Numbered from the stretch's first letter, positions 6,646 to 64,000 are shown. The stretch is 64,000 bases of DNA from an uncultured Bdellovibrionales bacterium (GCA_964484505.1 CAZAFB010000006.1:14337-78336); one strand, 5' to 3'. Numbers and translations are program-made. Notes: generated from the letters alone by a model not told the origin.

Positions 6646-7701
6646 TTATTTTAATATGTATGACGTGGCAGGACCTTTCCCAATTTGCTTTATCGTACCG
6701 ATTTTTTTCAATCTTTGCAGATGAAATTGAGCCGTTCGCTTAGGACAACCCAAAATATCGACGACATCCGAAACCGTTATCTTACCCATCTTATCCGCAA
6801 AATCCAGAATCTTCATTTGATCGGCTTCCATATATATTTGCGAATTGATATCATCATTAACCTTCACTGTAGATAAAGACATGACCTTGTTTTTAACGCT
6901 TTCAATTTCTTCCTTGAATCCCAAGATGAAATATTTGAGCCACGGAGTAAAATCTACTTTTCTCTGTTCATATGTTTTTCCAATATTTATAGCCTTATAA
7001 TAATTCGGGCGATTTTTATTGTAGTAATCCTCAAGCGCAAATAGTCTGCGAAAATCATACCCTCGCTTATAAAGAATAAGTGTAGCCATTGCTCTGGCAG
7101 TACGTCCATTACCATCAGCAAAAGGGTGGATTGCGGCTATTTCTTGATGAACAACACCGGCAACAATTACGGGGTTAATCTCTTCTTTTTCACTTTTTCC
7201 GATCCACTCAATAAGTTCCGCACATAGAGCGGGAACTTTTTTTGCATCCGGACCTGCATACATAACTTCACTTGGAAAACCAAGCCTGCGCCTGACGACG
7301 TAGACAGGACCCTTACGATATTTTCCCGACTGTTCCTTTGGTAGTGTGTTATCGGTAACCAAACTATGAATCTTCAGCAATATTTTTTCATTAATGGGCT
7401 TTTCTTTTCGAACAACTTCATCAATATATTTCAGTGCTTTTATGTAATTTTGCACTTCAAAAATATCGCGCTGCGGCGCATCTACCTTTCTGTGTCTAAG
7501 CAAAGCATCAACTTCAAAAGTATTAAGTTGATTTCCTTCTATTGCTGTCGAGCTGTGTGACATGCGTACCAATGCCTGACGACGCAGTTTCAGCTCATTT
7601 TTAGGAAACATTCGTGCACGCTCAATAACGACCTTTATTTCCGCTATTTCGGTCAACATCTTTACAATTTTGTCGGTTAACCTATATTTTGGCTTAAACA
7701 T
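6646..7701 (-). CDS. fic: Fic/Doc family protein (Fido domain)
   Basis: HPFADGNGRTARA motif. C-terminal winged-helix-like tail. Confidence 0.85.
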   Translation of the reverse strand: MFKPKYRLTDKIVKMLTEIAEIKVVIERARMFPKNELKLRRQALVRMSHSSTAIEGNQLNTFEVDALLRHRKVDAPQRDIFEVQNYIKALKYIDEVVRKEKPINEKILLKIHSLVTDNTLPKEQSGKYRKGPVYVVRRRLGFPSEVMYAGPDAKKVPALCAELIEWIGKSEKEEINPVIVAGVVHQEIAAIHPFADGNGRTARAMATLILYKRGYDFRRLFALEDYYNKNRPNYYKAINIGKTYEQRKVDFTPWLKYFILGFKEEIESVKNKVMSLSTVKVNDDINSQIYMEADQMKILDFADKMGKITVSDVVDILGCPKRTAQFHLQRLKKIGTIKQIGKGPATSYILK

Positions 7702-7870: not shown

Positions 7871-9256
7871 CTACTTCAAATTCTCTTCGAAATATTTTTC
7901 AAGCTGATCGATGGCGATTCTTTCTTGTTTCATCGTGTCACGATCGCGGACAGTGACAGCGCCGTCTTCAAGCGATTCAAAATCTACCGTCACGCAATAT
8001 GGCGTGCCGATTTCATCTTGCCGGCGATAACGCTTGCCCACATTGCCATTGTCATCAAACTCGCACATATATTTCTGTTTGAGCGTGTCATATATTTCGC
8101 GAGCTTTGGCGACCAACTCCGGCTTGTTCTTGAGCAGCGGAAAAACCGCAACTTTAACAGGCGCTAATTTCTTAGGTAATTTAAGAACTGTGCGTACGTC
8201 GTTTTCTCCAACTTTTTCTTCGACATACGCTTCCGTGAGTACCGCCAAGAATGTACGATCCAAACCGACCGATGTTTCCACAATCCATGGCACATATTTC
8301 TCATTAGTCTGCGGATCGCGATATGACAAATCGACGCCGGAAAATTTGGAATGCTGAGTGAGATCATAGTCGCTGCGATTGTGAATGCCTTCCAGCTCTT
8401 TGAATCCGAATGGGAATTTATATTCAATATCCCAAGCGGCCTTGGCATAAAAAACCAAATTCTCATGCTCGTGCCATTTCAGATTTTCCTCTTTGATTCC
8501 GAGATCAAGATAATATTGCCAACGCTTCACCCGCCATTGTTCATAGGTCTCCGCGGCCTGATCGGGATGCACGAAATATTGCATTTCCATCTGTTCAAAT
8601 TCACGCTTTCTGAAAATGAATTGGCGCGCCGTGATTTCATTGCGAAATGCTTTGCCGATTTGTGCGATGCCAAACGGAATTTTCACCCGCGTCGAATCAA
8701 GTACATTTTTGTAATTCACATATATTCCTTGGCATGTTTCCCCGCGAAGATATGTCGGCTCTTTCGTCCAATCACTCGTAAAGTTCCCCAAATTGGATTG
8801 CACCAGCAAATTGAATTTTTTTGCTTCGGAAAAATTTCTCTTACCACATTTCGGACATGCTATTTTGTCCCTGTTTTCAATCATCAACTGGTTGATTTGT
8901 TCTTCCGTCATTTTTTCATCCGCAAAAACTCCGATTTCTTCAAGCAAGTGATCGACGCGCGCGCGAAAGTGACATTCTTTGCATTCAGCAAGTGGATCGG
9001 AAAATCCACTGACATGCCCTGATGCTTCCCAGACTTTCGGATGCATGAAAATCGCACTGTCCAACCCGACGATATTCTCATGGTCTTGCACCATCGCTTT
9101 CCACCAAGCATCGCGGATGTTTTTTGCAAGCTCCACGCCATATGGCCCGAAATCATATACCGCTGCAAACCCGCCATAAATCTCCGATGACGGGAACACA
9201 AACCCCCTGCGCTTTGCAAGTGATACCAATTTATCCATTGTAATTTGTTCTGCCAT
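7871..9256 (-). CDS. glyQS: glycyl-tRNA synthetase (dimeric class II, GlyQS type)
   Basis: N-terminus MAEQITMDKLVSLAKRRGFVFPSSEIYGG...; class II aaRS motifs; 461 aa. Confidence 0.9.
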   Translation of the reverse strand: MAEQITMDKLVSLAKRRGFVFPSSEIYGGFAAVYDFGPYGVELAKNIRDAWWKAMVQDHENIVGLDSAIFMHPKVWEASGHVSGFSDPLAECKECHFRARVDHLLEEIGVFADEKMTEEQINQLMIENRDKIACPKCGKRNFSEAKKFNLLVQSNLGNFTSDWTKEPTYLRGETCQGIYVNYKNVLDSTRVKIPFGIAQIGKAFRNEITARQFIFRKREFEQMEMQYFVHPDQAAETYEQWRVKRWQYYLDLGIKEENLKWHEHENLVFYAKAAWDIEYKFPFGFKELEGIHNRSDYDLTQHSKFSGVDLSYRDPQTNEKYVPWIVETSVGLDRTFLAVLTEAYVEEKVGENDVRTVLKLPKKLAPVKVAVFPLLKNKPELVAKAREIYDTLKQKYMCEFDDNGNVGKRYRRQDEIGTPYCVTVDFESLEDGAVTVRDRDTMKQERIAIDQLEKYFEENLK

Positions 9257-9406: not shown

Positions 9407-10327
9407 ATGGGCATCAAAAAGAACAAAAACAGTCCAATTAAACTCACCGCCAAAGAAAAGAGGAACATAGCCATAATCGGCAGTGGCGTAGTTGGCAAAG
9501 CCACAGGCAAAGGCTTTATGGACATGGGTCACGATGTTGTTTTTGCCGACATCAACACAATCCTAGTCAATCAGCTTTCCAAAGAAAAACTGACTGCCTA
9601 TGAAATGGGTAACAACCACTTATTCGATGAAGATATTTATATAGTAAGCGTCCTAACACCTTTCATGAACGACTCTATTGAACTTCGCTTTATTGAATCA
9701 GCTGCCGCAAGTCTGGGAAATATTTTGAAGCAAAATAAAAAATGGCCGGTAATAATAATCCGCAGTACCGTCCCCCCGGGAACGATTGAAGAAATAATAA
9801 TACCTTTGATTGAACATTTTTCCGGAAAAAAAGTTGACGAAGACTTCGGCGTAGTCATGAATCCCGAATTTCTCAGAGAAGTAAGCGCAGAAAAAGATTT
9901 TCTCAATCCCTGGGTAGTCGTAATCGGCAGCAACAACTATCGGGCAACCAAAGTTATTGAATCCCTTTACAAACCCTTCGGGGCGCCCATATTCGCCATG
10001 AGCCTCAAGGAAGCAGAAATGCTTAAATATGTACACAATTTGTATAACGCCAACAAAATTTCTTTTTTCAATGAAATGCGTATGGTTGCGGAGTCCATAG
10101 GGGTCGATGCTGACAAAATTTTCTCGGCCGTGACCAAGAGCGCTGAAGGAATATGGAATCCAACATATGGAACCAGAAATTTCGGTCCCTTTGGCGGCAC
10201 CTGTCTACCCAAAGACACCAAAGTATTTTTGAACTGGACCCATGACAAACTGAAAAAGAAACTGCCCTTACTTCACGCCACTATAAAAGTAAACGAGGAA
10301 CTTAAAGAAAAAGAATACCTGGAATAA
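9407..10327 (+). CDS. UDP-glucose/GDP-mannose dehydrogenase family protein, apparently lacking the C-terminal UDP-sugar-binding domain
   Basis: N-terminal Rossmann IAIIGSGVVGKATG. Catalytic GGTCLPKD motif. The ORF stops about 40 aa after it, 2 nt before the next gene. Confidence 0.7.
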   Translation: MGIKKNKNSPIKLTAKEKRNIAIIGSGVVGKATGKGFMDMGHDVVFADINTILVNQLSKEKLTAYEMGNNHLFDEDIYIVSVLTPFMNDSIELRFIESAAASLGNILKQNKKWPVIIIRSTVPPGTIEEIIIPLIEHFSGKKVDEDFGVVMNPEFLREVSAEKDFLNPWVVVIGSNNYRATKVIESLYKPFGAPIFAMSLKEAEMLKYVHNLYNANKISFFNEMRMVAESIGVDADKIFSAVTKSAEGIWNPTYGTRNFGPFGGTCLPKDTKVFLNWTHDKLKKKLPLLHATIKVNEELKEKEYLE

Positions 10328-17271: not shown

Positions 17272-17275
17272 AATG

Positions 17276-17346
17276 CACGGGGTGAGGGAATCGAACCCCC
17301 GCCAAAAGTTTTGGAGACTCTCGTTCTACCACTAAACTAACCCCGC
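17276..17346 (-). tRNA. tRNA-Trp (anticodon CCA), no encoded CCA end
   Basis: Folded by hand: acceptor GCGGGGU/ACCCCGU, anticodon loop CUCCAAA, T-loop GGUUCGAUUCC. Confidence 0.85.
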
Positions 17347-17417
17347 CTTCGTCCGCCGGAGCGGACTTCGGCGGGCAAGCCCGCATAGCCGCGAAGGCGG
17401 AATTTTCTATTTCAAAA

Positions 17418-17582
17418 TCACTTCATCTCCTTATGCAGCGTATGCTTTCTGCAGCGATTGCAGAATTTGTTCACTTCCAATTTTTCCTTGATTTTCTTCT
17501 TGTTGCGTGAAGTGTAATAATTAATTTCCTTGCATTCACTGCAACGAAGCTTCACCATATTTTCCTTAGTTTTAGTCGCCAT
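17418..17582 (-). CDS. rpmG: 50S ribosomal protein L33
   Basis: [29 protein letters not shown]...[14 protein letters not shown]; four-Cys zinc ribbon typical of L33. Confidence 0.8.
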
Positions 17583-17908
17583 GTTTGTCTGTGAGGTACG
17601 AGCAGCTACAAACATGAGCGTCCCGCACCAATTCTCTTATTAAAATCTAAATTATTTATTCACTAAGCCATAGGCGTTTCCGCGCGATAAAATGACAAAT
17701 ATCACTGACCAAATTCGGAATTTGGTGCGGGAGGCCATTCCTATTTTTTTTGTTGTCGGCTGGCAACTGCCAACAAACTTGGAGCCGCTTAGCGGGATTT
17801 CACGTCGTTATCACTCCTTGAAAACCCACGGTTTTCAAGACTTTCCTCCAACAGAAAACTCCCGTTTTCCGACCCTTTCCCTGTTCAATTCTTAACTCAA
17901 AAGAGTTG

Positions 17909-17981
17909 AGCCGTTGTGCGGGATTGAACCGCAGACCTCATCCTTACCATGGATGCGCTCTACCAACTGAGCTACAACGGC
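17909..17981 (-). tRNA. tRNA-Thr (anticodon GGU)
   Basis: GCCGUUGUAGCUCAGUUGGUAGAGCGCAUCCAUGGUAAGGAUGAGGUCUGCGGUUCAAUCCCGCACAACGGCU. Confidence 0.85.
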
Positions 17982-17989
17982 AACATATC

Positions 17990-18176
17990 AATTAACTTAT
18001 AAAAAACAGCCTCGATGGATTTCCGCGTCGCTCATTTGCCGTCGCAAACGCGCTCCTTGTCCTGGGTAGCGCCAAATCCTCGCTTGCTCGAATTTGTCGG
18101 CGTTCGCTGCGGAAATTTCCTGCTGAAAATTTTCTAGCTCACTGCCACCCGTTCGAATCCCCTTTCACTATTCATA
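17990..18176 (-). ncRNA. candidate GC-rich structured RNA 'segment 2' between tRNA-Tyr and tRNA-Thr
   Basis: About 75% identical to 17109-17235, with shared hairpins. It sits inside the polycistronic tRNA unit. Confidence 0.4.
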
Positions 18177-18221
18177 TCAATGTTTTAAATTAATGCCTTG
18201 AGAGGCATTAATTTAAAACAT
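18177..18221. other. perfect ~19-bp AT-rich hairpin immediately 3' of tRNA-Tyr
   Basis: atgttttaaattaatgcct-tgag-aggcattaatttaaaacat. Confidence 0.5.
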
Positions 18222-18225
18222 TATG

Positions 18226-18308
18226 TGGGCAGGGAGGGATTCGAACCCCCGAAGACCGAAGTCGGCTGATTTACAGTCAGCTGTAATAGACCACTCTACC
18301 ACCTACCC
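18226..18308 (-). tRNA. tRNA-Tyr (anticodon GUA), long variable arm
   Basis: GGGUAGGUGGUAGAGUGG...GCUGACUGUAAAUCAGC...GGGGGUUCGAAUCCCUCCCUGCCCA. Confidence 0.85.
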
Positions 18309-18319
18309 ATTTGGTTTAT

Positions 18320-18724
18320 TCATAAACAGCTTTCCAAGCTCTTGAAATCATCAGCTGAATGAATGTGCATTTTTTGCTTATTTTTACTAGGCTCTATTCT
18401 TAATTTAAATGTACTTCTATTAATTTCAGAAACAGGAATATAATAAATATCTCTCGTCTTCCCATTGTAAGCAGCAATAACATCTATCTCTTTATCGGAA
18501 TAGTGCAACACTGACCAATTATTACTGCTTCTGCAATTAACCTCCATCGCACCATTTTTTGGCGTGACATACTTAACTTGTATCCTGATAAATCTGCCAT
18601 CCACTTCTGCAACCAAATCATATCGATTGTTTTCCCCAATAGGCATCAACACCCTCCAACCATCCTCAATAAGACGTGCGACCACATACATTTCAGCAAT
18701 ATAGCCCTTTGTCTTTTTATTCAT
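18320..18724 (-). CDS. PD-(D/E)xK nuclease, Hjc/archaeal Holliday-junction-resolvase-like
   Basis: GYIAEMYVVARLIEDGW...YDLVAE...IRIQVKY follows the G..E(R)E...D..(E/Q)xK pattern of Hjc-like nucleases; 134 aa. Confidence 0.45.
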   Translation of the reverse strand: MNKKTKGYIAEMYVVARLIEDGWRVLMPIGENNRYDLVAEVDGRFIRIQVKYVTPKNGAMEVNCRSSNNWSVLHYSDKEIDVIAAYNGKTRDIYYIPVSEINRSTFKLRIEPSKNKQKMHIHSADDFKSLESCL

Positions 18725-18748
18725 TGTTTTATATTACCAATTTCCCTG

Positions 18749-18820
18749 AGCCGACGAAGGGATTTGAACCCATAACCTTCACTTTACAAAAGTGTTGCTC
18801 TACCGTTGAGCTACGTCGGC
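18749..18820 (-). tRNA. tRNA-Thr (anticodon UGU)
   Basis: GCCGACGUAGCUCAACGGUAGAGCAACACUUUUGUAAAGUGAAGGUUAUGGGUUCAAAUCCCUUCGUCGGCU. One U-U mismatch in the T-stem. Confidence 0.75.
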
Positions 18821-53745: not shown

Positions 53746-54606
53746 TTATTCCAACGGACTTTTGATATTTTTCAGATTATTACTTGTGACTTTCGTGTAT
53801 ATTTGGGTCGTTTCCAGCTTTGCATGCCCCAAAAGCTCCTGGATATATCGTATATTAGTACCAGCTTCCAGTAAATGGGTGGCAAAAGAATGACGAAGCG
53901 TATGGCAAGAAACCTTTTTCATTATTTCAGCTTCTTCGGCAGCTTTCTTCACAATCTTCTCGGCACTTTCAGAAGTCAGATGTCCATTGCCTTGCGCCCC
54001 GGTGAACAAATAGTCCGCAGGTTTCTTTAGCAGCATCTGTCTTTTCAAAATAGGTATTAATTTTTCAGATAAAAGCGTGCAGCGATCTTTCTGTCCTTTC
54101 CCGCATCGCACCAGAATAAGGCCTCTATCCAAATCAAAATCACGCATTCGTATCTTGATAACCTCACTCACACGAAGTCCGGCCGAATACATTAGCGAAA
54201 TCAAAAAATGATGCTTGGGATTTGTCGTCACCGCAAGCATTCTTTGGATTTCCTCCTTACTAAGAACGGTCGGTAAATAGTTGGTCTTTTTGGCACATTT
54301 TATGTCAAAAAAGAACTTCCTATTGAGCACTTCCCGATAATAGAATTTCAAGGCATTAAGCGCAACATTTAACGTGGAACTTGCGCAACCTCTGTCTATT
54401 ATCGATTCCAAATATTTTCGAATATCATCATTCGTTACCTCCTTTGGGCTCTTTTTTATAAACTCCAAAAAAAGCCTATTGTAAAGCAAATATGATTCAG
54501 TTGTTCTTCTGCTAAAACCGCGAATCTTTAATTCCCTCTCCAAATTATATACATATTCTCTTTCTTCTGTGGTTTTTCTGCTATTTTTATGATAATATGT
54601 ATTCAT
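53746..54606 (-). CDS. tyrosine site-specific recombinase, XerC/XerD-like
   Basis: R..KGxKDR..HTLRHSFATHLL..GHAKLETTQIYTKV (catalytic Y). There is no IntI-specific insertion. Confidence 0.85.
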   Translation of the reverse strand: MNTYYHKNSRKTTEEREYVYNLERELKIRGFSRRTTESYLLYNRLFLEFIKKSPKEVTNDDIRKYLESIIDRGCASSTLNVALNALKFYYREVLNRKFFFDIKCAKKTNYLPTVLSKEEIQRMLAVTTNPKHHFLISLMYSAGLRVSEVIKIRMRDFDLDRGLILVRCGKGQKDRCTLLSEKLIPILKRQMLLKKPADYLFTGAQGNGHLTSESAEKIVKKAAEEAEIMKKVSCHTLRHSFATHLLEAGTNIRYIQELLGHAKLETTQIYTKVTSNNLKNIKSPLE

Positions 54607-54717
54607 AAGGCGTTATGATTACATCAAAATTATACCATGACACCCAATCTAAGCCAACAATTTAACTAGTAAGCATAAAAGGAGTTATGTGAAATTAATT
54701 TTTCCGCCCAAAAATAC

Positions 54718-55323
54718 ATGAAAGAAGAATTTAAAAAAATTTGGGAAATAGCCCTCCCTTATCAAGACAAACGAGACGATAAAGGTCATGCCAGAATTGT
54801 AACTGAATATGCTATTAAACTATGCGAGACTGAGAGCGTTAACGACATGATTATTGTTCCGGCTGCCATTTTACATGATATAGGCTGGAGTCAGCTTCCC
54901 AAGGAAGATTGGCAAGTTATTTTTGACCCAAACAAAACGCCGGAAATGGAATATGCGGTACGTATAAAGCACCAAGACGAGGGTGTGAAGTTAGCAGAAA
55001 AAATACTTAACGAAGCAGGCTATTCCCCAAATTTTTTTAAACCCATATTGGAAATTATCTCTCAGCACGACACCAGAAAAAAATTTTTTTCAGATGAAGA
55101 CGGTGCTATGCGTGATGCAGACAAGTTGTGGCGTTACTCCAAGACAGGTTTTGAAGCCGACCTTAAGCGAAATAATTTCACGTTCGATTTTCTTTATGAC
55201 AAAATGATGAAGCGGATTGATGAAAAAAATTTTTTCTTCTTCGAGTCAGCCAAGGATATTGCCAAGAACGAGCTTAATGATAGAAAGGAAGAATTTTTGG
55301 GCGGAAAAATTAACATCACATAA
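54718..55323 (+). CDS. HD-domain phosphohydrolase
   Basis: H...HDIG...D motif (AAILHDIGWSQL). Confidence 0.7.
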   Translation: MKEEFKKIWEIALPYQDKRDDKGHARIVTEYAIKLCETESVNDMIIVPAAILHDIGWSQLPKEDWQVIFDPNKTPEMEYAVRIKHQDEGVKLAEKILNEAGYSPNFFKPILEIISQHDTRKKFFSDEDGAMRDADKLWRYSKTGFEADLKRNNFTFDFLYDKMMKRIDEKNFFFFESAKDIAKNELNDRKEEFLGGKINIT

Positions 55324-55383
55324 CGGCTCGTATCAGGTTCCAGAAATTTGCTCAATTATATTTCAAGGAGTACAAATTTCTTC

Positions 55384-55637
55384 CACCCAAATTTTTGCCT
55401 CTCTTTTTCTTTTATATTACACTAAGGAAGAGGGCCAAAAACTTCTGATACAAGCGAACGTTCAGCGCCATCGCTCGCTTCGCTCACTCTGGCACTGAAC
55501 GGGCGCAGCTTGACAGCCTCATTCGTCACTGCCGCATCGCTCCGCTCGCGACAGCGCCGAACTCGGCTTATGCGAAATAATTGTCACCACGCTAAGGCGT
55601 GGCTCCAATTACATCGCATACGCCGCGCCCGTTATGT
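55384..55637 (+). repeat. GC-rich structured intergenic repeat, copy A (~250 bp)
   Basis: The core cgttcagcgccatcgctcgcttcgctcactctggcactgaacgggcgcagc...gcgtggctccaattacatcgcatacgccgcgcccgttat is nearly identical to copies at 60862-61096 and 63213-63466. Confidence 0.85.
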
Positions 55638-55818
55638 GAAATAAAATTCTTTTTCTTTTTTAAATTTGCTTTTTTATAATAAGGAAAAATAAGTTTTTTT
55701 ATCTTTTATAGAGGGGTATAAGGTGTCTTTTTTGCTCCTGGAATCGCAAAAAAGACGATTTTATTTTTATTATAAAATACGCTATAATATATGCAGTTAA
55801 ATCTGCTATTATTAAATT

Positions 55819-57483
55819 ATGCCAAAGCTTAAAGATATCCCAAAATTTGATCGCCCCAGAGAGAAATTTCTGGAAAAAGGGCCTGATGCGCTAACTGATA
55901 GCGAGCTTTTGGCTATTTTGCTTGGTAGCGGAATCAAGGGGACGAATGTAAAGGTATTGTCACAAAAGATTTTAAGGAAATTTGGTGATAATTTGTTAAA
56001 TGTCTCGGTCGATGACTTAATGCAAGTTTCGGGAATCGGACAGGCGAAAGCATTGCAAATTTCATCGGCACTTGCTTTGACGAGAAGGATTTTTAACAAG
56101 CAAAACTCCCTGGATAATTTGATTTTATCTGCGCAAGACGCTGTCGCTCTTGTTTCGGATTTGAAGGATAAAAAGCAAGAACATCTGATTTGCCTTTATC
56201 TCAATGCTCGCAATGCCTTGATAAAAAAAGAGACAATTTCAATTGGCACCCTTGATAAAAGCATTATTCATCCAAGAGAAATTTTCGCCCCAGGACTGGA
56301 AATGCACGCCGCAGGAGTGATACTTGTCCATAATCATCCTTCCGGTGATTCAAGTCCAAGCGAGCAAGATAAACAAGTTGCAAAAAGAATTATTGAAGCA
56401 GGTCAATTGATGGGCGTAAATGTTGTTGATTTTCTGATTGTAGCAAAAAACGGAGTACATAGCATACTTGGTGATCTAAAAAATACCGAGCTGACGAACA
56501 CGGAATATGTCGCAGAAGGATCTCAAGCTTCTCTGTTCGATTTATTGGTAGATGCAAATCAATCATATTTTTATAACAAAAACTCAATGATACAAAAGAA
56601 AAACAATAAATTGAAATTCATAGATTTATTTGCGGGAATTGGCGGTTTTCATATAGCATTTCACAATGCTGGAGCAGAATGTGTCTTCGTGTCCGAGTGG
56701 GACGGACCTGCTCAAAAAACATACAGACACAATCTTTACAAGGTTTCTCCCGAAATGTTTGATTCCGGAAATTTTATCGGAGATATTACGAAAGTTAAAC
56801 CTAAAGATATCCCTGATTTTGATATTTTGACTGCGGGATTTCCTTGTCAGCCATTTTCTCAGGCCGGTTTTAAAAAAGGGTTTAGCGAAACTCGCGGAAC
56901 TTTGTTTTTTGATATTGTAAATATTATAAAAGAAAAAAAACCAAAGGCTTTTTTTCTGGAAAATGTACGTGGCTTATTGAGTCATGACGATGGAAAGACA
57001 TTTAAAACCATAGAAAGAATTATCAAGGAGGAGTTGGGATATTCTTTTTTCCCTCAAGTAGTTAAGGCTTCCGATTTTGGCTTGCCGCAACATCGCCCAC
57101 GTCTTTTTATGGTTGGATTCAAAGATAAAACGATACATTTCAAGTTTCCCGAGCCAGTGAAAGAACTAAAATACACCTTGTCGGATATATTCAACGGAAA
57201 ATGCGATAAAGACATTGGATTTACTTTGCGTGTTGGTGGGCGCGGAAGCAAAATAACCGATCGTAGAAATTGGGATGCTTATCGAGTTAATGGAAAAATT
57301 GTTCAGCTTGGACCGAAAGAAGGATTAAAAATGCAGGGCTTTCCCGATTGGTACGAATTTCCACCGAACTTCTCAAGAGTTCAAGCCATGAAACAACTTG
57401 GCAATTCTGTTGCCGTCCCTGCAATTCAAGCGGTGGCCGAGGAAATTGTTAAAACATTAAAAAAACATGGAAAAAGGAAATAA
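55819..57483 (+). CDS. RadC-like JAB/MPN domain fused to C5-cytosine DNA methyltransferase
   Basis: N-terminus: DSELLAILLGSG...HNHPSG (RadC/UPF0758). C-terminus: FAGIGGF (motif I), GFPCQPFSQAG (motif IV), ENVRGL (motif VI). Confidence 0.8.
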   Translation: MPKLKDIPKFDRPREKFLEKGPDALTDSELLAILLGSGIKGTNVKVLSQKILRKFGDNLLNVSVDDLMQVSGIGQAKALQISSALALTRRIFNKQNSLDNLILSAQDAVALVSDLKDKKQEHLICLYLNARNALIKKETISIGTLDKSIIHPREIFAPGLEMHAAGVILVHNHPSGDSSPSEQDKQVAKRIIEAGQLMGVNVVDFLIVAKNGVHSILGDLKNTELTNTEYVAEGSQASLFDLLVDANQSYFYNKNSMIQKKNNKLKFIDLFAGIGGFHIAFHNAGAECVFVSEWDGPAQKTYRHNLYKVSPEMFDSGNFIGDITKVKPKDIPDFDILTAGFPCQPFSQAGFKKGFSETRGTLFFDIVNIIKEKKPKAFFLENVRGLLSHDDGKTFKTIERIIKEELGYSFFPQVVKASDFGLPQHRPRLFMVGFKDKTIHFKFPEPVKELKYTLSDIFNGKCDKDIGFTLRVGGRGSKITDRRNWDAYRVNGKIVQLGPKEGLKMQGFPDWYEFPPNFSRVQAMKQLGNSVAVPAIQAVAEEIVKTLKKHGKRK

Positions 57484-58555
57484 TAAAGGAGAATGGTCGG
57501 AATTTTACGCTTTCCTAAAAATATTAGATGAAAGAAAAATTTTTGCCGCTGATAAAAATCTCGAAATAATTGACGGGAAATTTTTTGTTTTTCATAAAAT
57601 TATCAGGGAGGAAAAAGATGAATCGACTAAAATTTACGATATTTCCCAGTCGGCAACTCAAGTCTTGATAACCGATGAGGATGGTAGGCTATTGAAAGAG
57701 TTTAAAACCGATTCACTCAAGGAAAAAACTTTAAAAATATTTGAAAGAATAAAAAACGAAAAAAGTCGTTCTTTCAATATTCCCGAAGCGCAAGAGTTGA
57801 TGAAAGAATTGCTTTGCACAAAAGTCAAAGCCAGCAATGCAAAAAAAGCCGATTTAGTGGCGATTATTTACGATAGAATTTCAAAAACAATGCCAATGCT
57901 CGGTTTTTCCATAAAGTCCATGGTCGGTGGTGCCTCCACATTGTTGAATCCCGGGCAAACAACAAATTTCATTTATGAAATTAAAGGATTCAGTGGGAAT
58001 GTTTCAGAAGTTAATGCAATTCAAACAAAAGCTCAAATTCGCGACCGTGTAAGAAAAATTGCGGAGCAAGGCGGAACTTTTGAATACATGGGTGTTTCAA
58101 ATGAACAATTTGGATTCAATATGAAAATGATTGACACAGTGTTGCCTGAATTTATAGCCCAAATGCTTTTGGACTTTTTTTCAAACTCACACAGAACGGT
58201 TGCTGATTTGACAAAAGAGCTGTCCGAGAATGAGAATATCAATAAAAAATTTGGTTTATCGCTGACAAATTATGAATACAAAATTAAAAACTTTCTGGAT
58301 GCGGTTGCGCTCGGAATGGTGCCAAGTAAACCATGGGACGGATTTTCAAAGGCACACGGAGGTTATATTGTGGTAAAAGAAAACGGCGATGTTGTTTGCT
58401 ATCACTTGTATAACAGAGATGAGTTTCGTTCCTATTTATATGAAAATACCAGATTTGATGCACCAAGCACGACCAGGTATGGCTATGGTGAATTATATGA
58501 AGAAAATGGCAAACTGTTTTTTAAATTGAATTTGCAAATCAGGTTTTTGAAATAA
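57467..58555 (+). CDS. type II restriction endonuclease (HpaII-like family, tentative)
   Basis: Position between the m5C MTase and vsr. N-terminus NKGEWSEFYAFLKIL resembles the HpaII REase family. Confidence 0.5.
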   Translation: MEKGNNKGEWSEFYAFLKILDERKIFAADKNLEIIDGKFFVFHKIIREEKDESTKIYDISQSATQVLITDEDGRLLKEFKTDSLKEKTLKIFERIKNEKSRSFNIPEAQELMKELLCTKVKASNAKKADLVAIIYDRISKTMPMLGFSIKSMVGGASTLLNPGQTTNFIYEIKGFSGNVSEVNAIQTKAQIRDRVRKIAEQGGTFEYMGVSNEQFGFNMKMIDTVLPEFIAQMLLDFFSNSHRTVADLTKELSENENINKKFGLSLTNYEYKIKNFLDAVALGMVPSKPWDGFSKAHGGYIVVKENGDVVCYHLYNRDEFRSYLYENTRFDAPSTTRYGYGELYEENGKLFFKLNLQIRFLK

Positions 58556-58562
58556 AACGGGT

Positions 58563-58967
58563 ATGGCTGATATTTTTTCCAAAAAGAAGCGCAGTGAGAT
58601 AATGTCAAAAGTTAGAAGTAAAGACAGTAAGATAGAAGTTGAATTTCGGAAAAAATTGTGGAAAGCGGGATTCCGTTATCGTAAAAACTCAACAAAATAT
58701 TTCGGCAAGCCTGACATTGTTTTGCCGAAATACAAAACCGTAATTTTCATAGATTCTTGTTTTTGGCACGGATGCAAAAAACACAGCTCAATACCCAAAA
58801 CTCGAAAAAAATTTTGGGAAACAAAAATTGAACGCAATAGAGAAAGGGACCAGGAGGTTAGTAAATATTACAAAAAACAGGGTTGGAATATATTTAGAAT
58901 TTGGGAACATAATTTGAAAAATGATTCAGAAAAGGTTTTGAATATAATTTTAGAAAAAATTATTTAG
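58563..58967 (+). CDS. vsr: very-short-patch-repair endonuclease
   Basis: FIDSCFWHGC motif. Confidence 0.85.
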   Translation: MADIFSKKKRSEIMSKVRSKDSKIEVEFRKKLWKAGFRYRKNSTKYFGKPDIVLPKYKTVIFIDSCFWHGCKKHSSIPKTRKKFWETKIERNRERDQEVSKYYKKQGWNIFRIWEHNLKNDSEKVLNIILEKII

Positions 58968-58968
58968 C

Positions 58969-60666
58969 ATGAAGCTTAAAAAAATTGTTATACAAAATTT
59001 TAAATCGATTATAAATGATGAGGTTATTTTTAATGACTTCACTTTTTTTGTTGGAAAAAATAATTATGGGAAGTCTAATTATTTAAGAGCGGTTGACCAT
59101 TTGCTTAGTTTTTCAAAAACATACGGAAATGTCAAAGAAATTCAAAATAATAAGGAAAACCCAATTGTTATTGACGGATGGTTTGAGGGTGTAGAAAAAT
59201 ATACGCCACAGCTGAAAGACAGTAAACACAAAGAGGCTGTTGAAAAATTAATTAACAGTGACAATTTAATTCAGTTGCGTTTAACTATAAACTTAGACGG
59301 TCAAGGCGAAACATCTCTTATTGATCCTTCAAATAGTGAAACCGTAAATCCGACTGGTTGGTCAACAAACTGTAAAAAGTTATTTCCAGAAACTATTTTT
59401 ATTCCTGCTACTGCAGACACTGCTGACGAACTGCAAGAAAAAGCTTCAACAGCATTATCAAAAATAAAAAAAGAAGTAATGCAACAGTTTTTTACTTCCT
59501 TATCGTCAAAGATTGATACAGCATTTGAGCCAATCGATAAATTTTTACATGGCGAAGAAAAAGACAGATCGGAAGATTTAAAAAATCTAGAAAATGATTT
59601 TGCTGAAGAAATGATGGGTGAATTTTCTACAACAAAGCCATCAATAAAATTCACTTTGCCAGACTCAAGTTTTATCGGCAAAGGAATGAAAATTAACCTT
59701 CATGATGGGTTTCACGATTGCGATATTGAGCAAAAAGGACATGGACTCCAGAGAACGGCTCTCTTTGCTTTAATTCGTCTTTTATCCAAGCACAATTCTT
59801 CAAGCCAAACAAAACCAGCACCAATATTTTTAATTGAAGAACTGGAAGCGTTTTTGCATCCATCTGCTCAAAAAAGATTAGCTGAAAGCATGGAAAAAAT
59901 GGCTGGAAAATATCAAACAATTGCAACAACCCATTCACCATTCGTTTTGACCGAAAAGCTTTTGGGCGGTTATAGAAAAATATTTCGTAATGATAAAGAA
60001 GGATCCAAGTGTTGCGGACCACAGAAAAATCATGATGAATTTAAAAAGAAAGACTATGATGTCGTTAAAAATTCTTTATCGCACACTGGAAATTTAATAA
60101 GTCTGTTTTCAGACATTGTGGTAGTTGTTGAAGGAAGGGAGGATAGCGGTTTTTATCCAACCGTATTGGAATTATTGAAAAAAGAAGAAAACGGACTAGT
60201 TTCCTTTGTCGAAACTGTTGGGGGAGGAAATAGTAATTTTCATGTATCGTATAACTTTTTCAAACTTATGGGATTCAAGAAAATTTTTGTTATCTGTGAT
60301 TTGGATTGTCTCTTTGATACAAATTTTAAGGAGTTGTTAAAAACTGTTTCTGTTGACTCTGATTTTATTGATGATTTTAGGAAAGATATCGGCTTTTCTG
60401 GTGCTGGACAGCCAGGAACGGAGTTTGTTTTATCAAATATTGAAAAAATTGATAATAAAAAAATAACAGATAAAATTTCTGAGTTGGCAAAAATAAATAT
60501 TTTTGTATTAAAAAATGGAACACCGGAAAATTATTATTCAGATGATTTCAAAAAGGACAATAGCGCAAGAAATGTTAAAAAAATATGGGAATATTTAACA
60601 AGCAAAGAAGATTTGAAAAACATAGAAGAGCTAGGTAGTATCATGAATCCGATTTTAAATTCATAA
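58969..60666 (+). CDS. OLD-family ATP-dependent nuclease (ABC-type ATPase plus Toprim)
   Basis: N-terminal IQNFKSI...FVGKNNYGKSNYLRAV (AAA_15/21). Q-loop and signature regions. C-terminal Toprim VVVEGREDSGF...FVICDLD. Confidence 0.7.
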   Translation: MKLKKIVIQNFKSIINDEVIFNDFTFFVGKNNYGKSNYLRAVDHLLSFSKTYGNVKEIQNNKENPIVIDGWFEGVEKYTPQLKDSKHKEAVEKLINSDNLIQLRLTINLDGQGETSLIDPSNSETVNPTGWSTNCKKLFPETIFIPATADTADELQEKASTALSKIKKEVMQQFFTSLSSKIDTAFEPIDKFLHGEEKDRSEDLKNLENDFAEEMMGEFSTTKPSIKFTLPDSSFIGKGMKINLHDGFHDCDIEQKGHGLQRTALFALIRLLSKHNSSSQTKPAPIFLIEELEAFLHPSAQKRLAESMEKMAGKYQTIATTHSPFVLTEKLLGGYRKIFRNDKEGSKCCGPQKNHDEFKKKDYDVVKNSLSHTGNLISLFSDIVVVVEGREDSGFYPTVLELLKKEENGLVSFVETVGGGNSNFHVSYNFFKLMGFKKIFVICDLDCLFDTNFKELLKTVSVDSDFIDDFRKDIGFSGAGQPGTEFVLSNIEKIDNKKITDKISELAKINIFVLKNGTPENYYSDDFKKDNSARNVKKIWEYLTSKEDLKNIEELGSIMNPILNS

Positions 60667-60861
60667 TACAATACTACAATAAGGAGTTTTTGTTTTTGGG
60701 CATTCACCCCTTACCCCTCTGCCCAAAATCAAAAACAAAAAAACTTATTTATCATTTAGAATAAAAGCAAATTTAAAAAAGAAAAAGAATTTTACATCAC
60801 ATAACAAGGCATATCCGGTTCAAAAATTTTGCACTTTATAATAAAATCAAGGAAAGCAAAA

Positions 60862-61096
60862 TTTTCTCTCCCAAATTTTTCTTCCGCTAAGCTACAGAAA
60901 AACTTCGGATATGCCTAACGTTCAGCGCCATCGCTCGCTTCGCTCACTCTGGCACTGAACGGGCGCAGCTTGACAGCCTCATTCGTCACTGCCGCATCGC
61001 TCCGCTCGCGACAGCGCCGAACTCGGCTTATGCGAAATAATTGTCACCACGCTAAGGCGTGGCTCCAATTACATCGCATACGCCGCGCCCGTTATG
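60862..61096 (+). repeat. GC-rich structured intergenic repeat, copy B
   Basis: See copy A. Its 5' AT-rich part is shorter. Confidence 0.85.
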
Positions 61097-61208
61097 CGCA
61101 ATCGCAAAAAACCTCTCTTTATTAATTCATTTAATAATTTTGGCGAAATGCGGATGCAGGTCGAGAATAACTCAAATGTAATAGATAATTAATTTAAGTA
61201 AAAAATTT

Positions 61209-61685
61209 ATGAGTGAAAAAATGATGGGGCTAGAACAAGTTGGCCCAAATAAAGAGCACTTGCAAAGAGCCACGGATTTTAAAAATGTAAGAGAAAATGC
61301 ATTAGAAGATAGGCGCGAAGCAAAGATAGAAACCTCAATTGAATTAAAGAAATTTAATCCCTGGCAAAAAGATACTGAACAATGGCAGCAATTTGAAGAT
61401 TTCTGCCACGAAGAACTTCCAAAATATGAAGCCTTTGTTAATGAGAATGCAAAAAAGATAATTGCAGAACTTCTCCATGCTGGCACGCAAGTCACAGAAA
61501 ATCCAGATTATGATGGCTATAAAAGTTTTGACATACTTGATCAGAGTGGTCTTGTGGCTCATTTTGATGGGGGATGGGTTGATGCTGGTGATTGGGATAA
61601 GGGATATGCATTTCATTTATCAGGCTTTACGCCGACTCAACAAACAGCAGCAGTAAAATGGATAGTAAAATTTGAAGAAAAATAA
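61209..61685 (+). CDS. hypothetical protein
   Basis: ORF only. Confidence 0.35.
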   Translation: MSEKMMGLEQVGPNKEHLQRATDFKNVRENALEDRREAKIETSIELKKFNPWQKDTEQWQQFEDFCHEELPKYEAFVNENAKKIIAELLHAGTQVTENPDYDGYKSFDILDQSGLVAHFDGGWVDAGDWDKGYAFHLSGFTPTQQTAAVKWIVKFEEK

Positions 61686-61821
61686 ATCGCCAAAATTATA
61701 AATGCAGAAATACAATTAAGGAATGAGGCTTTTCGCGACAGCGTATAACAGCCCATATCTGGCTACAGGAAATTTCAAAATCTATTTTAATCCTCTTTTA
61801 TTAAAGCAATTTTTCATAAAA

Positions 61822-62475
61822 ATGAATAAGGAACAAATCGTAAATCAAACTGCTGACTATATCAAAACTAAACTCACCGGCGAAGGTTCTGGTCATGACT
61901 GGTGGCATGTTTATCGTGTGTGGAAAAATGCTGTTCACATTGGCAAACATGAAAACGCAGATTTGTTCGTCGTTGAACTTGCTGCGTTATTACACGATAT
62001 TGCTGATTGGAAATTCAACGATGGCAATGACGATGTCGGTCCGCAGTTGGCAAGAGAGTGGCTAGAAAAATTAGAGGTTGATGAGGCGGTGATTTCTCAT
62101 GTTTGCCAAATCATCAAAGACGCTTCGTTCAAGGGAGCGGGCGTCATGACCGAGATGAAAACAATCGAGGGTATGGTTGTTCAAGACGCTGATCGATTAG
62201 ACGCGATTGGTGCTATTGGAATTGCTAGAACCTTCGCCTACGGTGGTGCGAAAGGACGAGAAATGTATAATCCCGAAATTAAACCTGAAAAACACGAATC
62301 TTTTGAGCAGTACAAAAACAATCAAAGTCACACAGTGAATCATTTTTATGAAAAATTGCTACTCTTGAAAGAATTGATGAATACTGAAACTGCGAAAAAA
62401 ATTGCCGAGAAGCGACATAAAGTGATGGAAGAATTTTTAGACGAATTCTTTCAAGAGTGGGAAGGAAAGGATTAA
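61822..62475 (+). CDS. HD-domain phosphohydrolase
   Basis: GHDWWHVYRV...LLHDIADWKF...DADRLDA. Confidence 0.65.
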   Translation: MNKEQIVNQTADYIKTKLTGEGSGHDWWHVYRVWKNAVHIGKHENADLFVVELAALLHDIADWKFNDGNDDVGPQLAREWLEKLEVDEAVISHVCQIIKDASFKGAGVMTEMKTIEGMVVQDADRLDAIGAIGIARTFAYGGAKGREMYNPEIKPEKHESFEQYKNNQSHTVNHFYEKLLLLKELMNTETAKKIAEKRHKVMEEFLDEFFQEWEGKD

Positions 62476-62485
62476 AACAAATTTT

Positions 62486-62560
62486 GAAAATTTTCCTCCG
62501 CTCAAATTTTCCTTCACTACGTTTCGGAAAACTTCAGATATGTACAAACGTTAGACAAAA
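62486..62560 (+). repeat. partial copy (5' part only) of the GC-rich repeat family
   Basis: ctcaaattttccttcactacgtttcggaaaacttcagatatgtacaaacgtt, then diverges. Confidence 0.5.
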
Positions 62561-62797
62561 TTTTGCCGATAATTGTTTTGTAAAAAATGTTTGTGCTGGT
62601 AAAAAAGTATTTTGAAATAATAAAATTTGATATATAAAATCGGCAAAACATCGTCTAACACTGTGTACCTGGTTTCATGAAAAGGAATTCAACAAATAAT
62701 CTTTACAATTTCAAATGCCATTTTTTGGGATTTTTTGGGAAAAGAAAACGGCCTTCAGTTTTGGCTGAAGACCGTCGTGTGCAAATTCTCGCACATT

Positions 62798-63058
62798 TTA
62801 TTCCGCGGTATTTTTGTCGGTTTTGCAGAATAAATTTACAAAGAACAGCTTGATTTTACTTGGCGGTGGCGGTGGCGGAAATGTAGTGGTTGCATCATGC
62901 TTTGATCTTCCACAACCCCCACAATACTTCGTGAATTTCCACAGTTCCGTACCACACCAGTTGCATGTTGTCATTGGCACCATTTCGCCACCACAGTTAT
63001 CACAGAATTTTCTATAACCTTGTCTTCCACACTGTGAACACATCTTGTTGGCCATAAT
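62798..63058 (-). CDS. small zinc-ribbon protein with poly-Pro tail
   Basis: Four CxxC pairs (CSQCG...CDNCG...CNWCG...CGGCG). Confidence 0.4.
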   Translation of the reverse strand: MMANKMCSQCGRQGYRKFCDNCGGEMVPMTTCNWCGTELWKFTKYCGGCGRSKHDATTTFPPPPPPSKIKLFFVNLFCKTDKNTAE

Positions 63059-63212
63059 AATGAACCTCCCTCGTGTTTTTTTGAACAATTTTACACAAAA
63101 TTAACTTCAAGCAAGTATAGCAGAAAATAATGATTATGTCAACTATTTTTCCCAAAAAATCCCAAAAAATGGCTCAAATTAAGGAAATTATTTGTTAAAT
63201 TCCTTTTCATTT

Positions 63213-63466
63213 CACCCAAATTTTTGCTTCTTTTCTCTTTATTGATATAATATGGGAAGCGAAGCAAAAACTTCAGATACACAGAAACGTTCAGCGCCAT
63301 CGCTCGCTTCGCTCACTCTGGCACTGAACGGGCGCAGCTTGACAGCCTCATTCGTCACTGCCGCATCGCTCCGCTCGCGACAGCGCCGAACTCGGCTTAT
63401 GCGAAATAATTGTCACCACGCTAAGGCGTGGCTCCAATTACATCGCATACGCCGCGCCCGTTATAC
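63213..63466 (+). repeat. GC-rich structured intergenic repeat, copy C
   Basis: See copy A. Confidence 0.85.
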
Positions 63467-63595
63467 GAAATTTTGTTCAAAAATATTTTTTTATTTTATA
63501 TTTGAGCCCTTTTGAAATTTTTTTGGAAAAGGAAAACGCGCCAGAGGTCCGAAGACATGACGCGTTGCATGACGAGAAAGCACTGTTCTCGCTTA

Positions 63596-63988
63596 TTAGT
63601 TGGCCGGAAACTCCTCGAAACACAGGGCGACGGTCTGCTCGTGTGCATTATAGAGCGCACGCATATCGAGCCATTGTGTGTCGCGTCCATCATCCGGCTG
63701 AAGGCCAACCGCATTGCCCTCAAAGAACAGCGTACCTTCGCCGAGCGTGATCTTCTGACCCACCTTTGGGGTCTTCGGGAACACGCCGTGGAAGAGGTCG
63801 CCGATATGCCGTGACTGTCTGGTTTCTTTCACGATAGCGATGAGGCGACCGCGCTTGCCAGCCTTCACCTGAACAAGGTGTATCGGCTCCTCGTTTTCGA
63901 GAGAAACGTACAGCATGACACTTCCGTAGCGATCAGATCTGCGCTCGGCTCCGTTCCAATTCAGAATACCTGTTCCTAGTTCCTGCAT
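63596..63988 (-). CDS. hypothetical protein in a GC-rich (~55% GC) segment
   Basis: Good SD GGAGGAAUAAAC upstream. Composition is very different from the rest of the window. Confidence 0.35.
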   Translation of the reverse strand: MQELGTGILNWNGAERRSDRYGSVMLYVSLENEEPIHLVQVKAGKRGRLIAIVKETRQSRHIGDLFHGVFPKTPKVGQKITLGEGTLFFEGNAVGLQPDDGRDTQWLDMRALYNAHEQTVALCFEEFPAN

Positions 63989-64000
63989 GTTTATTCCTCC

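Follow-up and report, generated by a model that had tools for sequence, protein, structure and literature searches.

A probable integron-like gene-cassette array beside an I2-less tyrosine recombinase in a candidate-phyla bacterium, and the GC-rich unit at its cassette junctions

The stretch of DNA analysed here, 64,000 nucleotides recorded under an uncultured Bdellovibrionales bacterium (GCA_964484505.1 CAZAFB010000006.1:14337-78336; hereafter the window), carries a block of four defence genes between two direct repeats of ~240 bp, which the initial annotation interpreted as a mobile cassette, either excisable through these repeats or inserted site-specifically. We find that the region from 54684 to the window end at 64000, together with ~3.5 kb beyond it, is probably an integron-like gene-cassette array that belongs to the adjacent tyrosine recombinase gene (53746-54606), that the defence block, with its restriction-modification (R-M), Vsr and Old genes, is one cassette of this array, and that the GC-rich repeats are bystanders at cassette junctions and not the ends of the block. 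The genome that hosts the array is that of a member of the candidate phyla (Patescibacteria, or candidate phyla radiation, CPR). The array is an integron-like cassette platform, a non-canonical variant conserved across CPR lineages, of which we found no prior description; in the literature searched, neither integrons nor cassette arrays are described for Patescibacteria/CPR.

The recombinase and the attI-like region

The recombinase gene (53746-54606, minus strand), which the initial annotation did not mention, is divergent from the array and separated by one short gene from the first copy of the repeat (copy A). It encodes a 286-aa protein of IntI/XerA-like, 'Cand' type (Pfam Phage_integrase and SAM_4), i.e. 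of the Xer-related subgroup of candidate-phyla recombinases that is presumed to replace Xer (PMC8138268). In NCBIfam, the model XerA_Arch ("site-specific tyrosine recombinase/integron integrase") matches with 238.6 bits, above its cutoff, and the integron integrase model TIGR02249 with 230.6 bits, below its cutoff and in two stretches. Among solved structures the best match is the Vibrio integron integrase IntI4 (2A3V, E 5e-49), followed by archaeal XerA (4A8E, E 1e-42) and XerD; to XerA (4A8E and 5HXY) the protein aligns in a single stretch. The I2 insertion is absent, residues 186-239 of IntI4 (54 aa) being replaced by 12 aa, and no I2-type insertion was found in members of the family or in 42-46 % identical relatives that adjoin sites of the kind described below. 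Published work assigns to this insertion, the I2 helix, the docking of extrahelical attC bases and regards integrons as unable to function without it (PMC7790495; PMC9668308 citing Messier & Roy 2001; PMC8138268). Many insertion-less IntI/XerA-like recombinases (L016-L095; 33-47 % identity, matched length ~260-270 aa) were also seen in DPANN archaea, Saccharibacteria, Gracilibacteria, Bacteroidota and Alphaproteobacteria.

The attI-like region (54607-54686) contains the promoter-like site of the recombinase on the minus strand (54657 to 54629; TTGGCT-17-TATAAT with TG) and leads into the first cassette, which starts at 54684. Its boundary, ...GTACG-N-ATAAAA-NN-A|GTT (in the window ...GTAAGCATAAAAGGA|GTT), is located ~80 nt from the start codon and is conserved in six loci, in which the sequence directly after GTT is specific to the locus or cassette. 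This boundary is a candidate attI.

Layout of the array and anatomy of the cassettes

The array comprises eight sites and about nine cassettes in ~13 kb, and its far end is marked by a glycosyltransferase/mreB/murA block. Each cassette starts with G|TT-N4-GAAAT, carries zero to four genes and ends in an attC-like site of ~80-200 nt, and the GTT-N5 at its start is complementary to its own N5-AAC, the R'' of its site. Every cassette moreover shares a non-complementary motif pair, GTT-N4-GAAAT at the start versus GTT-N4-GATGT opposite. Comparison of the bases after the junction GTT with the R'' of the same cassette (i.e. that of the next site) gave 51 matches out of 68, with 29.9 expected by permutation (p < 1e-5), against only 36 out of 84 for the R'' of the abutted site. 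The former count is conservative, because the GC-rich units of the window (see below) were not separated in this regular-expression test; with these units separate, 26 of 30 N5 positions match across six correctly placed units of the window (5, 4, 5, 4, 4 and 4 of 5). The cassettes also have inverted ends of 28-88 nt, for example with 21-31 matches over 28-41 nt in cassettes 3, 4 and 5. Own-cassette complementarity and long inverted ends together are the signature expected of units circularised at G|TT, as in integron cassettes.

Cassette 1 (54684-55459, plus strand) consists of an HD-domain gene (54718-55323) and its attC-like site; the inverted ends extend over 41 nt (85 %), and the start GTTATGTG is complementary to the cassette's own R'' CACATAAC (55317-55324). 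Cassette 2 is the defence block. Cassette 3 (61091-62549, plus strand), delimited by half-site patterns and weak matches to the site model introduced below, carries a 158-aa gene (61209-61685) and a second HD gene (61723-62475), and its start GTTATGCG pairs with R'' CGTATAAC. In cassette 4 (62550-63288, plus strand; repeats and half-sites) the start GTTAGAC is complementary to R'' GTCTAAC (62653-62659), and a Cys-rich open reading frame (ORF) of 96 aa (62798-63088, minus strand) is situated inside a split site. Cassette 5 starts at 63460, runs through the window end at 64000 and for a further 125 nt, and reaches an attC-like site 126-279 nt past that end. Its 130-aa gene (63596-63988, minus strand) is antisense to all other cassette genes and matches no NCBIfam or PADLOC family; the cassette has 47 % GC and the gene ~52 %, in a genome of 34-40 %.

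Structure and covariation of the attC-like sites

Read on the top strand from 5' to 3', a site consists of ACATC-N4-AAC (R''), an 11-bp L stem that closes two further hairpins, and xAAC·G|TT, and it folds into a three-way junction of ~80-200 nt. As R'' is complementary to the start of its own cassette and not to that of the abutting next cassette, the R' of a site is hybrid. The arms of the L stem covary (GGCATATCCG/CGGATATGCC, ACTCATATCTG/CAGATATGAGT, GCTCGTATCAG/CTGATACAAGC). No site departs from AAC and GTT. Many of the R boxes have the canonical form (GCCTAAC/GTTAGGC, GTCTAAC/GTTAGAC), and about half of all R boxes are off at one position. Further features are the conserved mismatch of GAAAT and GATGT, a 4-nt xAAC bulge and, in three of 11 sites, one bulged base.

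When 11 sites of three genomes were aligned with MAFFT, without fitting to a model, 91 % of the cells were paired and 16 of 30 pairs had double changes, values that none of 500 shuffles reached (slid controls 25-53 %). For 141 distinct, independently retrieved sites the figures rose to 97 % paired cells and 27 of 30 compensatory pairs (slid controls 28-55 %), in an alignment that was fitted to the model and is hence biased towards structure. One pair is G·U on the bottom strand, equivalent to C·A on the top strand, in 140 of the 141 sites, and with DNA parameters the bottom strand is the more stable one in 12 of 15 sites.

A covariance model (R1) built from 11 aligned sites matches the window only between 55311 and 63291, always on the minus strand, and two more sites in the extension beyond it. 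Site 1 (55311-55462, modelled on the bottom strand, with R'', L stem, stem 2, stem 3 plus extension, and xAAC·GTT) scores 120 bits (E 2.6e-32), and site 2, that of the defence cassette (60792-60922), 133.6 bits (E 2.9e-36). Two further minus-strand sites, recognised by a half-site pattern, are split: the halves of site 3 (61739-61762 and 62535-62552; weak R1 matches of 31.9 and 18.2 bits) are placed around the HD gene at 61723-62475, and those of site 4 (62649-62672 and 63274-63291) around the 96-aa ORF.

About a quarter of the attC-like sites in the arrays of the window and of two related loci (L006 and L009) are split in this way, a whole gene replacing the loop of stem 2. The genes inside split sites are flanked by inverted repeats of their own, 25-67 nt in length and 67 nt in the case of the 96-aa ORF, which also has a strong promoter (63142 to 63114) and a terminator (62776 to 62747). 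In a subset of sites the L' arm contains one additional base that is unpaired (CAGAT-G-ATGCCG on the top strand, versus CGGCATATCTG; L006 at 9428-9615, 6958-7150 and 2066-2144, L009 at 7495-7626); it resembles an extrahelical base. The optional stem-3 extension of sites A and C was considered as a promoter of an RNA, but a consensus scan did not flag it and found no enrichment of promoter-like sites; it is better described as a hairpin extension.

The defence cassette

The four co-oriented defence genes are present as originally described. On the plus strand, Pfam and PADLOC recognise a fusion of RadC-JAB and Dcm, a C5-methyltransferase (55819-57483), a restriction endonuclease (REase) of the HpaII family (57467-58555), Vsr (58563-58967) and a full-length Old ATPase-Toprim nuclease (58969-60666); the PADLOC labels are type II methyltransferase, type II REase, Vsr and Old. 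With its own attC-like site the block forms cassette 2 (55631-60919, plus strand). Its inverted ends (55631-55718 and 60718-60805) match at 41 of the first 43 nt and at 62 of 88 overall; the cassette begins at 55631 (GTTATGTGAAAT...) and its right inverted end closes at 60805 (...ACATCACATAAC), merging into the site at 60792-60922. A unitig from the independent assembly of another sample (L012) spans exactly 55631-60922. The earlier proposal of a mobile cassette holds as far as a discrete, site-specifically bounded cassette in a hypervariable region is concerned: synteny with a related genome (L006) is broken over the array, and the neighbours at the same junctions differ in another sample. 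It is not supported with regard to excision or insertion through the GC-rich repeats. The flanking HD genes, which had been taken for unrelated genes, are the contents of neighbouring cassettes.

Close relatives of the REase (87-94 % protein identity) are common in several CPR lineages, and the RadC-JAB::Dcm, HpaII-like REase and Vsr genes (55819-58967) constitute a conserved three-gene module in several of these lineages. Elsewhere this module is accompanied by varying fourth genes, sometimes a helix-turn-helix controller, and by varying chromosomal neighbours. When direct evidence for movement of the R-M cassette was sought in other arrays, the trio was seen only outside arrays.

A segment of 341 nt located 0.3-3 kb past the window end on the source contig (L001, 7024-7363; this contig reaches 10 kb past the window end) is 96.5 % identical to 60702-61040 of the window, a stretch that takes in the R-M cassette's right inverted end and site as well as two-thirds of the GC-rich unit. 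In L001 this segment closes a Fic cassette whose start does not match the segment, which suggests chimeric cassettes or segmental duplication.

The GC-rich unit at cassette junctions

The direct repeats of ~240 bp are real (55381-55642 and 60841-61102 in a repeat search; shuffles yield 0 expected matches), and the same search revealed a third copy in the window, 63210-63471, which had gone unmentioned. A block of 179 nt is 100 % identical in all three copies (copy A 55457-55635, copy B 60917-61095, copy C 63286-63464). Each repeat is composite: a portion of ~75 nt is AT-rich, belongs to an attC-like site, carries an indel and shows 60-80 % identity between copies, and it is followed by a GC-rich unit of 171 nt (55460-55630, 60920-61090 and 63289-63459) that has 61 % GC in surroundings of 34-40 % and is flanked by GTT on either side. 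Two decayed copies are found 0.3 and 2.8 kb past the window end (L001), one retaining the first hairpin alone and the other truncated within the last hairpin, which brings the total to at least five.

The unit codes for no gene. It is ordered as G|TTCAGCGCCA, a 19-nt body, TGGCACTGAAC, GGGCGCAGC, two hairpins, GCCGCGCCC and G|TT, so that a GC-rich L stem closes two hairpins and is followed by GTT. Its start GTTCAGCGCCA and its R'' TGGCACTGAAC are complementary except at one of 11 positions, where the bottom strand would form G·T. Folded as RNA, the bottom strand reaches -124.8 kcal/mol versus -88.9 kcal/mol for the top strand (bottom-strand z -8 for copy A), and with DNA parameters -53.7 versus -40.6 kcal/mol. 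The unit has no terminal inverted repeats, only the shared CGTT and a hairpin at each end; it lacks the ACATC and GAAAT motifs and the xAAC bulge, and R1 does not recognise it. A search of the window against Rfam 15 at the gathering score returned four tRNAs only and no match to the unit, and at E <= 10 copy A had chance-level matches only. Exact 22-24-mers of the unit had no match in metagenome, viral and genome collections; the source samples are apparently absent from the metagenome collection, and the first exact word of the metagenome scan covered one position that is variable in copy E.

Every copy of the unit occupies an AAC·G|TT junction, where an attC-like site, AT-rich and with three stems, has its 3' end. 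L003, a contig from another sample, shares the gene downstream of copy C, and its junction at that position, ...GAGTAAC|GTTATACGAAATTTTGTTC..., lacks the unit (the empty junction reads ...GAGTAAC|GTTATACGAAAT), whereas the window has ...AGAAAC|GTT[CAGCGCC...GCGCCCGTT]ATACGAAATTTTGTTC... at the same junction. The next junction of L003 is likewise free of the unit, and the upstream gene differs from that of the window. Both junctions of the 130-aa cassette are therefore present in L003 with other neighbours and no GC-rich unit. The junctions of the unit read xAAC-GTT-CAGC... and ...GCGCCC-GTT-ATGTG, and comparison of these two occupied junctions with the empty one confines the exchange to the shared CGTT. 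The GC-rich unit is thus an optional insertion at a fixed junction. The idea that the GC-rich repeats are the ends or recombination sites of the island is not supported, as they are separate 171-nt units that exist in at least five copies, are missing from L003 and occupy many cassette junctions. The boundaries are instead formed by putative AAC·G|TT crossover points within the AT-rich structured sites.

We moderately favour the interpretation that the unit is a gene-less mini-cassette propagated within the array. Gene-less short cassettes are common in sister arrays. In one of them (L009) a 300-nt segment is duplicated at 99 % (6925-7224 and 8205-8504) and represents a gene-less cassette or site, analogous to the multiplied GC-rich unit.

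Conservation and specificity across genomes

Homologues of the recombinase in Moranbacteria/Parcubacteria share 55-91 % identity and are of uniform length, and all the loci examined have a series of small genes of miscellaneous kinds on the divergent side. These sister arrays, which include genes for PQ-loop, HAD, N6-methyltransferase, NUDIX, MazG, cupin, kinase and Fic proteins, are interrupted by sites of the same type and orientation; six further genomes, found by way of the protein, also have a divergent array. Synteny with the Moranbacteria reference L006 extends up to the attI GTT and resumes at the far glycosyltransferase, and the 13.1-kb array here and the 9.4-kb array of L006 have nothing in common. 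Likewise, L004 diverges exactly at the attI GTT.

As a specificity control, R1 was applied to 1.03 Mb around 80 distant recombinases (33-47 % identity, many phyla, among the matches listed); one locus matched, in a Peregrinibacteria metagenome-assembled genome (MAG) with a 45 % identical recombinase and the same geometry. Conversely, a strict DNA pattern of the site retrieved at least 120 metagenome contigs and had no match in the viral collection. Across 80 of these site-retrieved loci R1 identified 181 sites, on one strand per locus and in arrays of up to 8-9 sites. The recombinase is included in nine of the 80 loci, and in all nine the sites precede its 5' end and share its coding strand. 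The sites are restricted to the vicinity of this recombinase family, in members of the Moranbacteria/Parcubacteria and the Peregrinibacteria, and the association holds whether the search starts from the protein or from the site. Contigs with the recombinase or cassettes are very often 1-6 kb in length and end at the boundaries of sites or GC-rich units (e.g. L002, L012 and L015).

Proposed mechanism and alternative explanations

If the array functions as its anatomy suggests, the recombinase would excise cassettes as circles through site x site recombination at G|TT and would insert them at the attI-like ...ATAAAAGGA|GTT or at other sites, presumably with the folded bottom strand as its substrate. 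The R-M/Vsr/Old block would be one four-gene cassette of the array and the GC-rich unit a mini-cassette inserted at five or more junctions, so that two of its copies would happen to bracket the defence cassette. Under this model the circle of the R-M cassette would join ...CGGATATGCCTAAC|GTTATGTGAAATAAAATTC (also given as AGAAAAACTTCGGATATGCCTAAC|GTTATGTGAAATAAAATTC) and that of the GC-rich unit ...CATACGCCGCGCCC|GTTCAGCGCCATCGC, i.e. ...GCGCCC|GTTCAGCGCC, and site 1 joined directly to the R-M cassette would read ...CTGATACAAGCGAAC|GTTATGTGAAAT. Observed in the sequences are the anatomy of the array, the covariation of the sites, the complementary cassette ends, the polymorphism of the junctions, the link to the recombinase and the lack of I2; the catalysis, the single-stranded nature of the substrate and the mobility of the GC-rich unit by the same enzyme we infer by analogy with integrons.

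Several points weigh against this model. The evidence for the array, with its predicted excision circles, is wholly computational, and the order of blocks between identical GC-rich copies derives from short-read assemblies; this order agrees in the window, in the JGI contig Ga0248168_1000601 and in L002, and the assembly of sample 3300022664 broke at every copy. As the recombinase is devoid of the I2 helix described as essential, the reaction may differ from that of integrons. No cassette promoter (Pc) is apparent, promoter-like signals not being enriched. A cassette of four genes and 5.3 kb is atypical, and in three long contigs (L216, L217 and L218) the RadC-Dcm/HpaII/Vsr trio, at 77-82 % DNA identity, is found outside any array, without Old and without attC-like sites. 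Finally, mobilisation of the GC-rich unit by the same enzyme is the weakest step, because the unit escapes the site model and has neither the ACATC/GAAAT motifs nor the xAAC bulge.

With respect to the GC-rich unit, the main rival is a small transposon, non-autonomous and directed to the attC-like junction, either a palindrome-associated element of the IS200/IS605 type that inserts 3' of CGTT with a transposase encoded elsewhere, or a remnant of an attC-targeting insertion sequence (IS) or intron. We consider this possible, if unlikely. Several identical copies of foreign composition (61 % versus 34-40 % GC), hairpins at both ends in the absence of terminal inverted repeats, an invariant insertion point beside CGTT and the blindness of the site model to the unit would all be in keeping with such an element. 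On the other hand, the unit is laid out like a cassette, in that its start can pair with an N5-AAC inside it, one stem encloses two hairpins and GTT comes last, and short cassettes devoid of genes are frequent in sister arrays. A transposase was not among the genes of the array (neither the remainder of the window nor the genome as a whole was screened for one), and the 22-24-mers of the unit are absent from the three collections scanned.

A second alternative concerns the recombinase, which could be the Xer of the cell, with the array as a pile-up of Xer-exploiting elements (integrative mobile elements exploiting Xer, IMEX) at dif and with ordinary double-stranded sites. The XerA architecture without I2, the high conservation and uniform length within the lineage and the published treatment of 'Cand' recombinases as Xer substitutes (PMC8138268) speak for it, and in CTX phage Xer acts on folded single strands (PMC7790495). 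It nevertheless appears distinctly unlikely: inspection of junctions and attI revealed no 11-6-11 dif-like dyad, three covarying stems and bottom-strand wobble pairs favour a folded substrate, and most cassettes consist of one small gene with no role in replication or in phages. The junctions were inspected specifically as 11-6-11 dif-like sites and rejected as such, since AACGTT is palindromic but the flanking arms have neither dyad symmetry nor dif-type conservation. This alternative overlaps with the cassette model, and a dual role of the enzyme as Xer and cassette recombinase is possible.

That the defence island is a composite element, with the GC-rich repeats as functional ends and excision or insertion by homologous or internal-site recombination, is quite improbable. 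Two identical 179-nt copies do flank the block, their homology would be enough for RecA-mediated deletion, and assemblies break at the copies; the deletion junction would read ...GCGCCC|GTTATGCGCAATCGC with a single GC-rich copy. Against this stand the third identical and the two decayed copies at junctions of unrelated cassettes, the same junctions without the unit in L003, and the fact that the block has inverted ends of 43-88 nt of its own and its own attC-like site within the repeats. Deletion of the RecA type between the identical copies could occur, though no observation requires it. Lastly, it is very improbable that the repeats and/or the AT-rich sites are RNA elements (small RNAs, terminators or insulators) kept for a function at the RNA level, for although their strong predicted folding (z -5 to -8) and covariation would be compatible with RNA, they match no Rfam family, the cassette genes are antisense to whichever strand pairs better, no sites are seen away from the array next to the recombinase, and own-cassette complementarity, hybrid R' and junction polymorphism, which are signatures of recombination, would be left unexplained.

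Comparison with known systems

The array shares with sedentary chromosomal integrons (such as the Vibrio cholerae superintegron with its VCR-type attC) a divergent tyrosine recombinase, a co-oriented array, a conserved array-proximal insertion boundary, cassettes bounded by G|TT whose start is complementary to their own R'', and sites whose structure is kept more than their sequence and whose bottom strand folds better. Miscellaneous and defence cargo, gene-less cassettes and a hypervariable array between conserved flanks are further common traits. By contrast, the recombinase here has 12 aa in place of the 54 of I2, and the sites are longer (~80-200 nt), form a three-way junction and carry the additional motifs ACATC, GAAAT, ATATCYGG, CCCAAATTT and an xAAC abutting GTT. 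Moreover, around a quarter of the sites enclose a gene, the inverted ends measure 20-90 nt, and the host belongs to Patescibacteria. Archaeal integrons (Ghaly et al. 2022, PMC9668308) resemble the array in their non-classical hosts, integron architecture and discovery in MAGs, but are reported to possess the IntI-specific domain and have attC sites that fit the canonical model; here the domain is absent and the sites appear non-canonical.

Xer/dif systems and IMEX (CTX phage, and the pdif modules of Acinetobacter plasmids) likewise rely on a simple Xer-type enzyme with neither I2 nor an arm-binding domain and on modules bounded by recombination sites, and CTX phage provides a precedent for a folded single strand. 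The array differs in having long, structured and covarying hairpins and no 28-bp dif-like sites, and in being ordered, co-oriented and placed by the recombinase gene with integron-style hybrid sites.

Anti-phage systems are also stockpiled as cassettes in integrons (bioRxiv 10.1101/2024.07.02.601719; PMC12614218); the defence cassette here differs in comprising four genes in 5.3 kb (type II R-M, Vsr and Old) on a non-canonical platform, and in that its R-M trio also exists outside arrays in related genomes. As for the GC-rich unit, it is short, gene-less and multi-copy at the junction, like ORF-less integron cassettes, IS1111-attC elements and group IIC-attC introns. It is, however, far smaller (171 nt) and non-coding compared with the latter two and without terminal inverted repeats, and its site is from another structural family than those of the host array.

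Implications for the candidate phyla

We judge it an evenly balanced question whether CPR bacteria carry a lineage-wide, integron-like mode of gene capture in which an I2-less, Xer-related 'Cand' recombinase acts on three-way-junction hairpin sites. If they do, recombination of cassettes at structured sites would exist naturally without the I2 helix, either as a relic of integron evolution from before I2 or as a solution that arose independently. According to the published view, attC recombination became possible through I2, and nature offers no known intermediates between Xer-like enzymes and IntI (PMC7790495), so that an I2-less array, with a defined enzyme, attI and sites, renders this question testable. 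Reduced CPR genomes would moreover gain genes, those for defence among them, to a large part by way of this platform, which would be a dedicated gene-acquisition locus in organisms whose horizontal gene gain and defence are poorly known. As assemblies break at the arrays, the accessory and defence content of CPR MAGs is probably under-recovered; with the site model, metagenomes can be searched for further cassettes.

Elsewhere in the window, and unrelated to the array, four tRNA genes (Trp-CCA, Thr-GGT, Tyr-GTA and Thr-TGT) are located at 17275-18820 on the minus strand.

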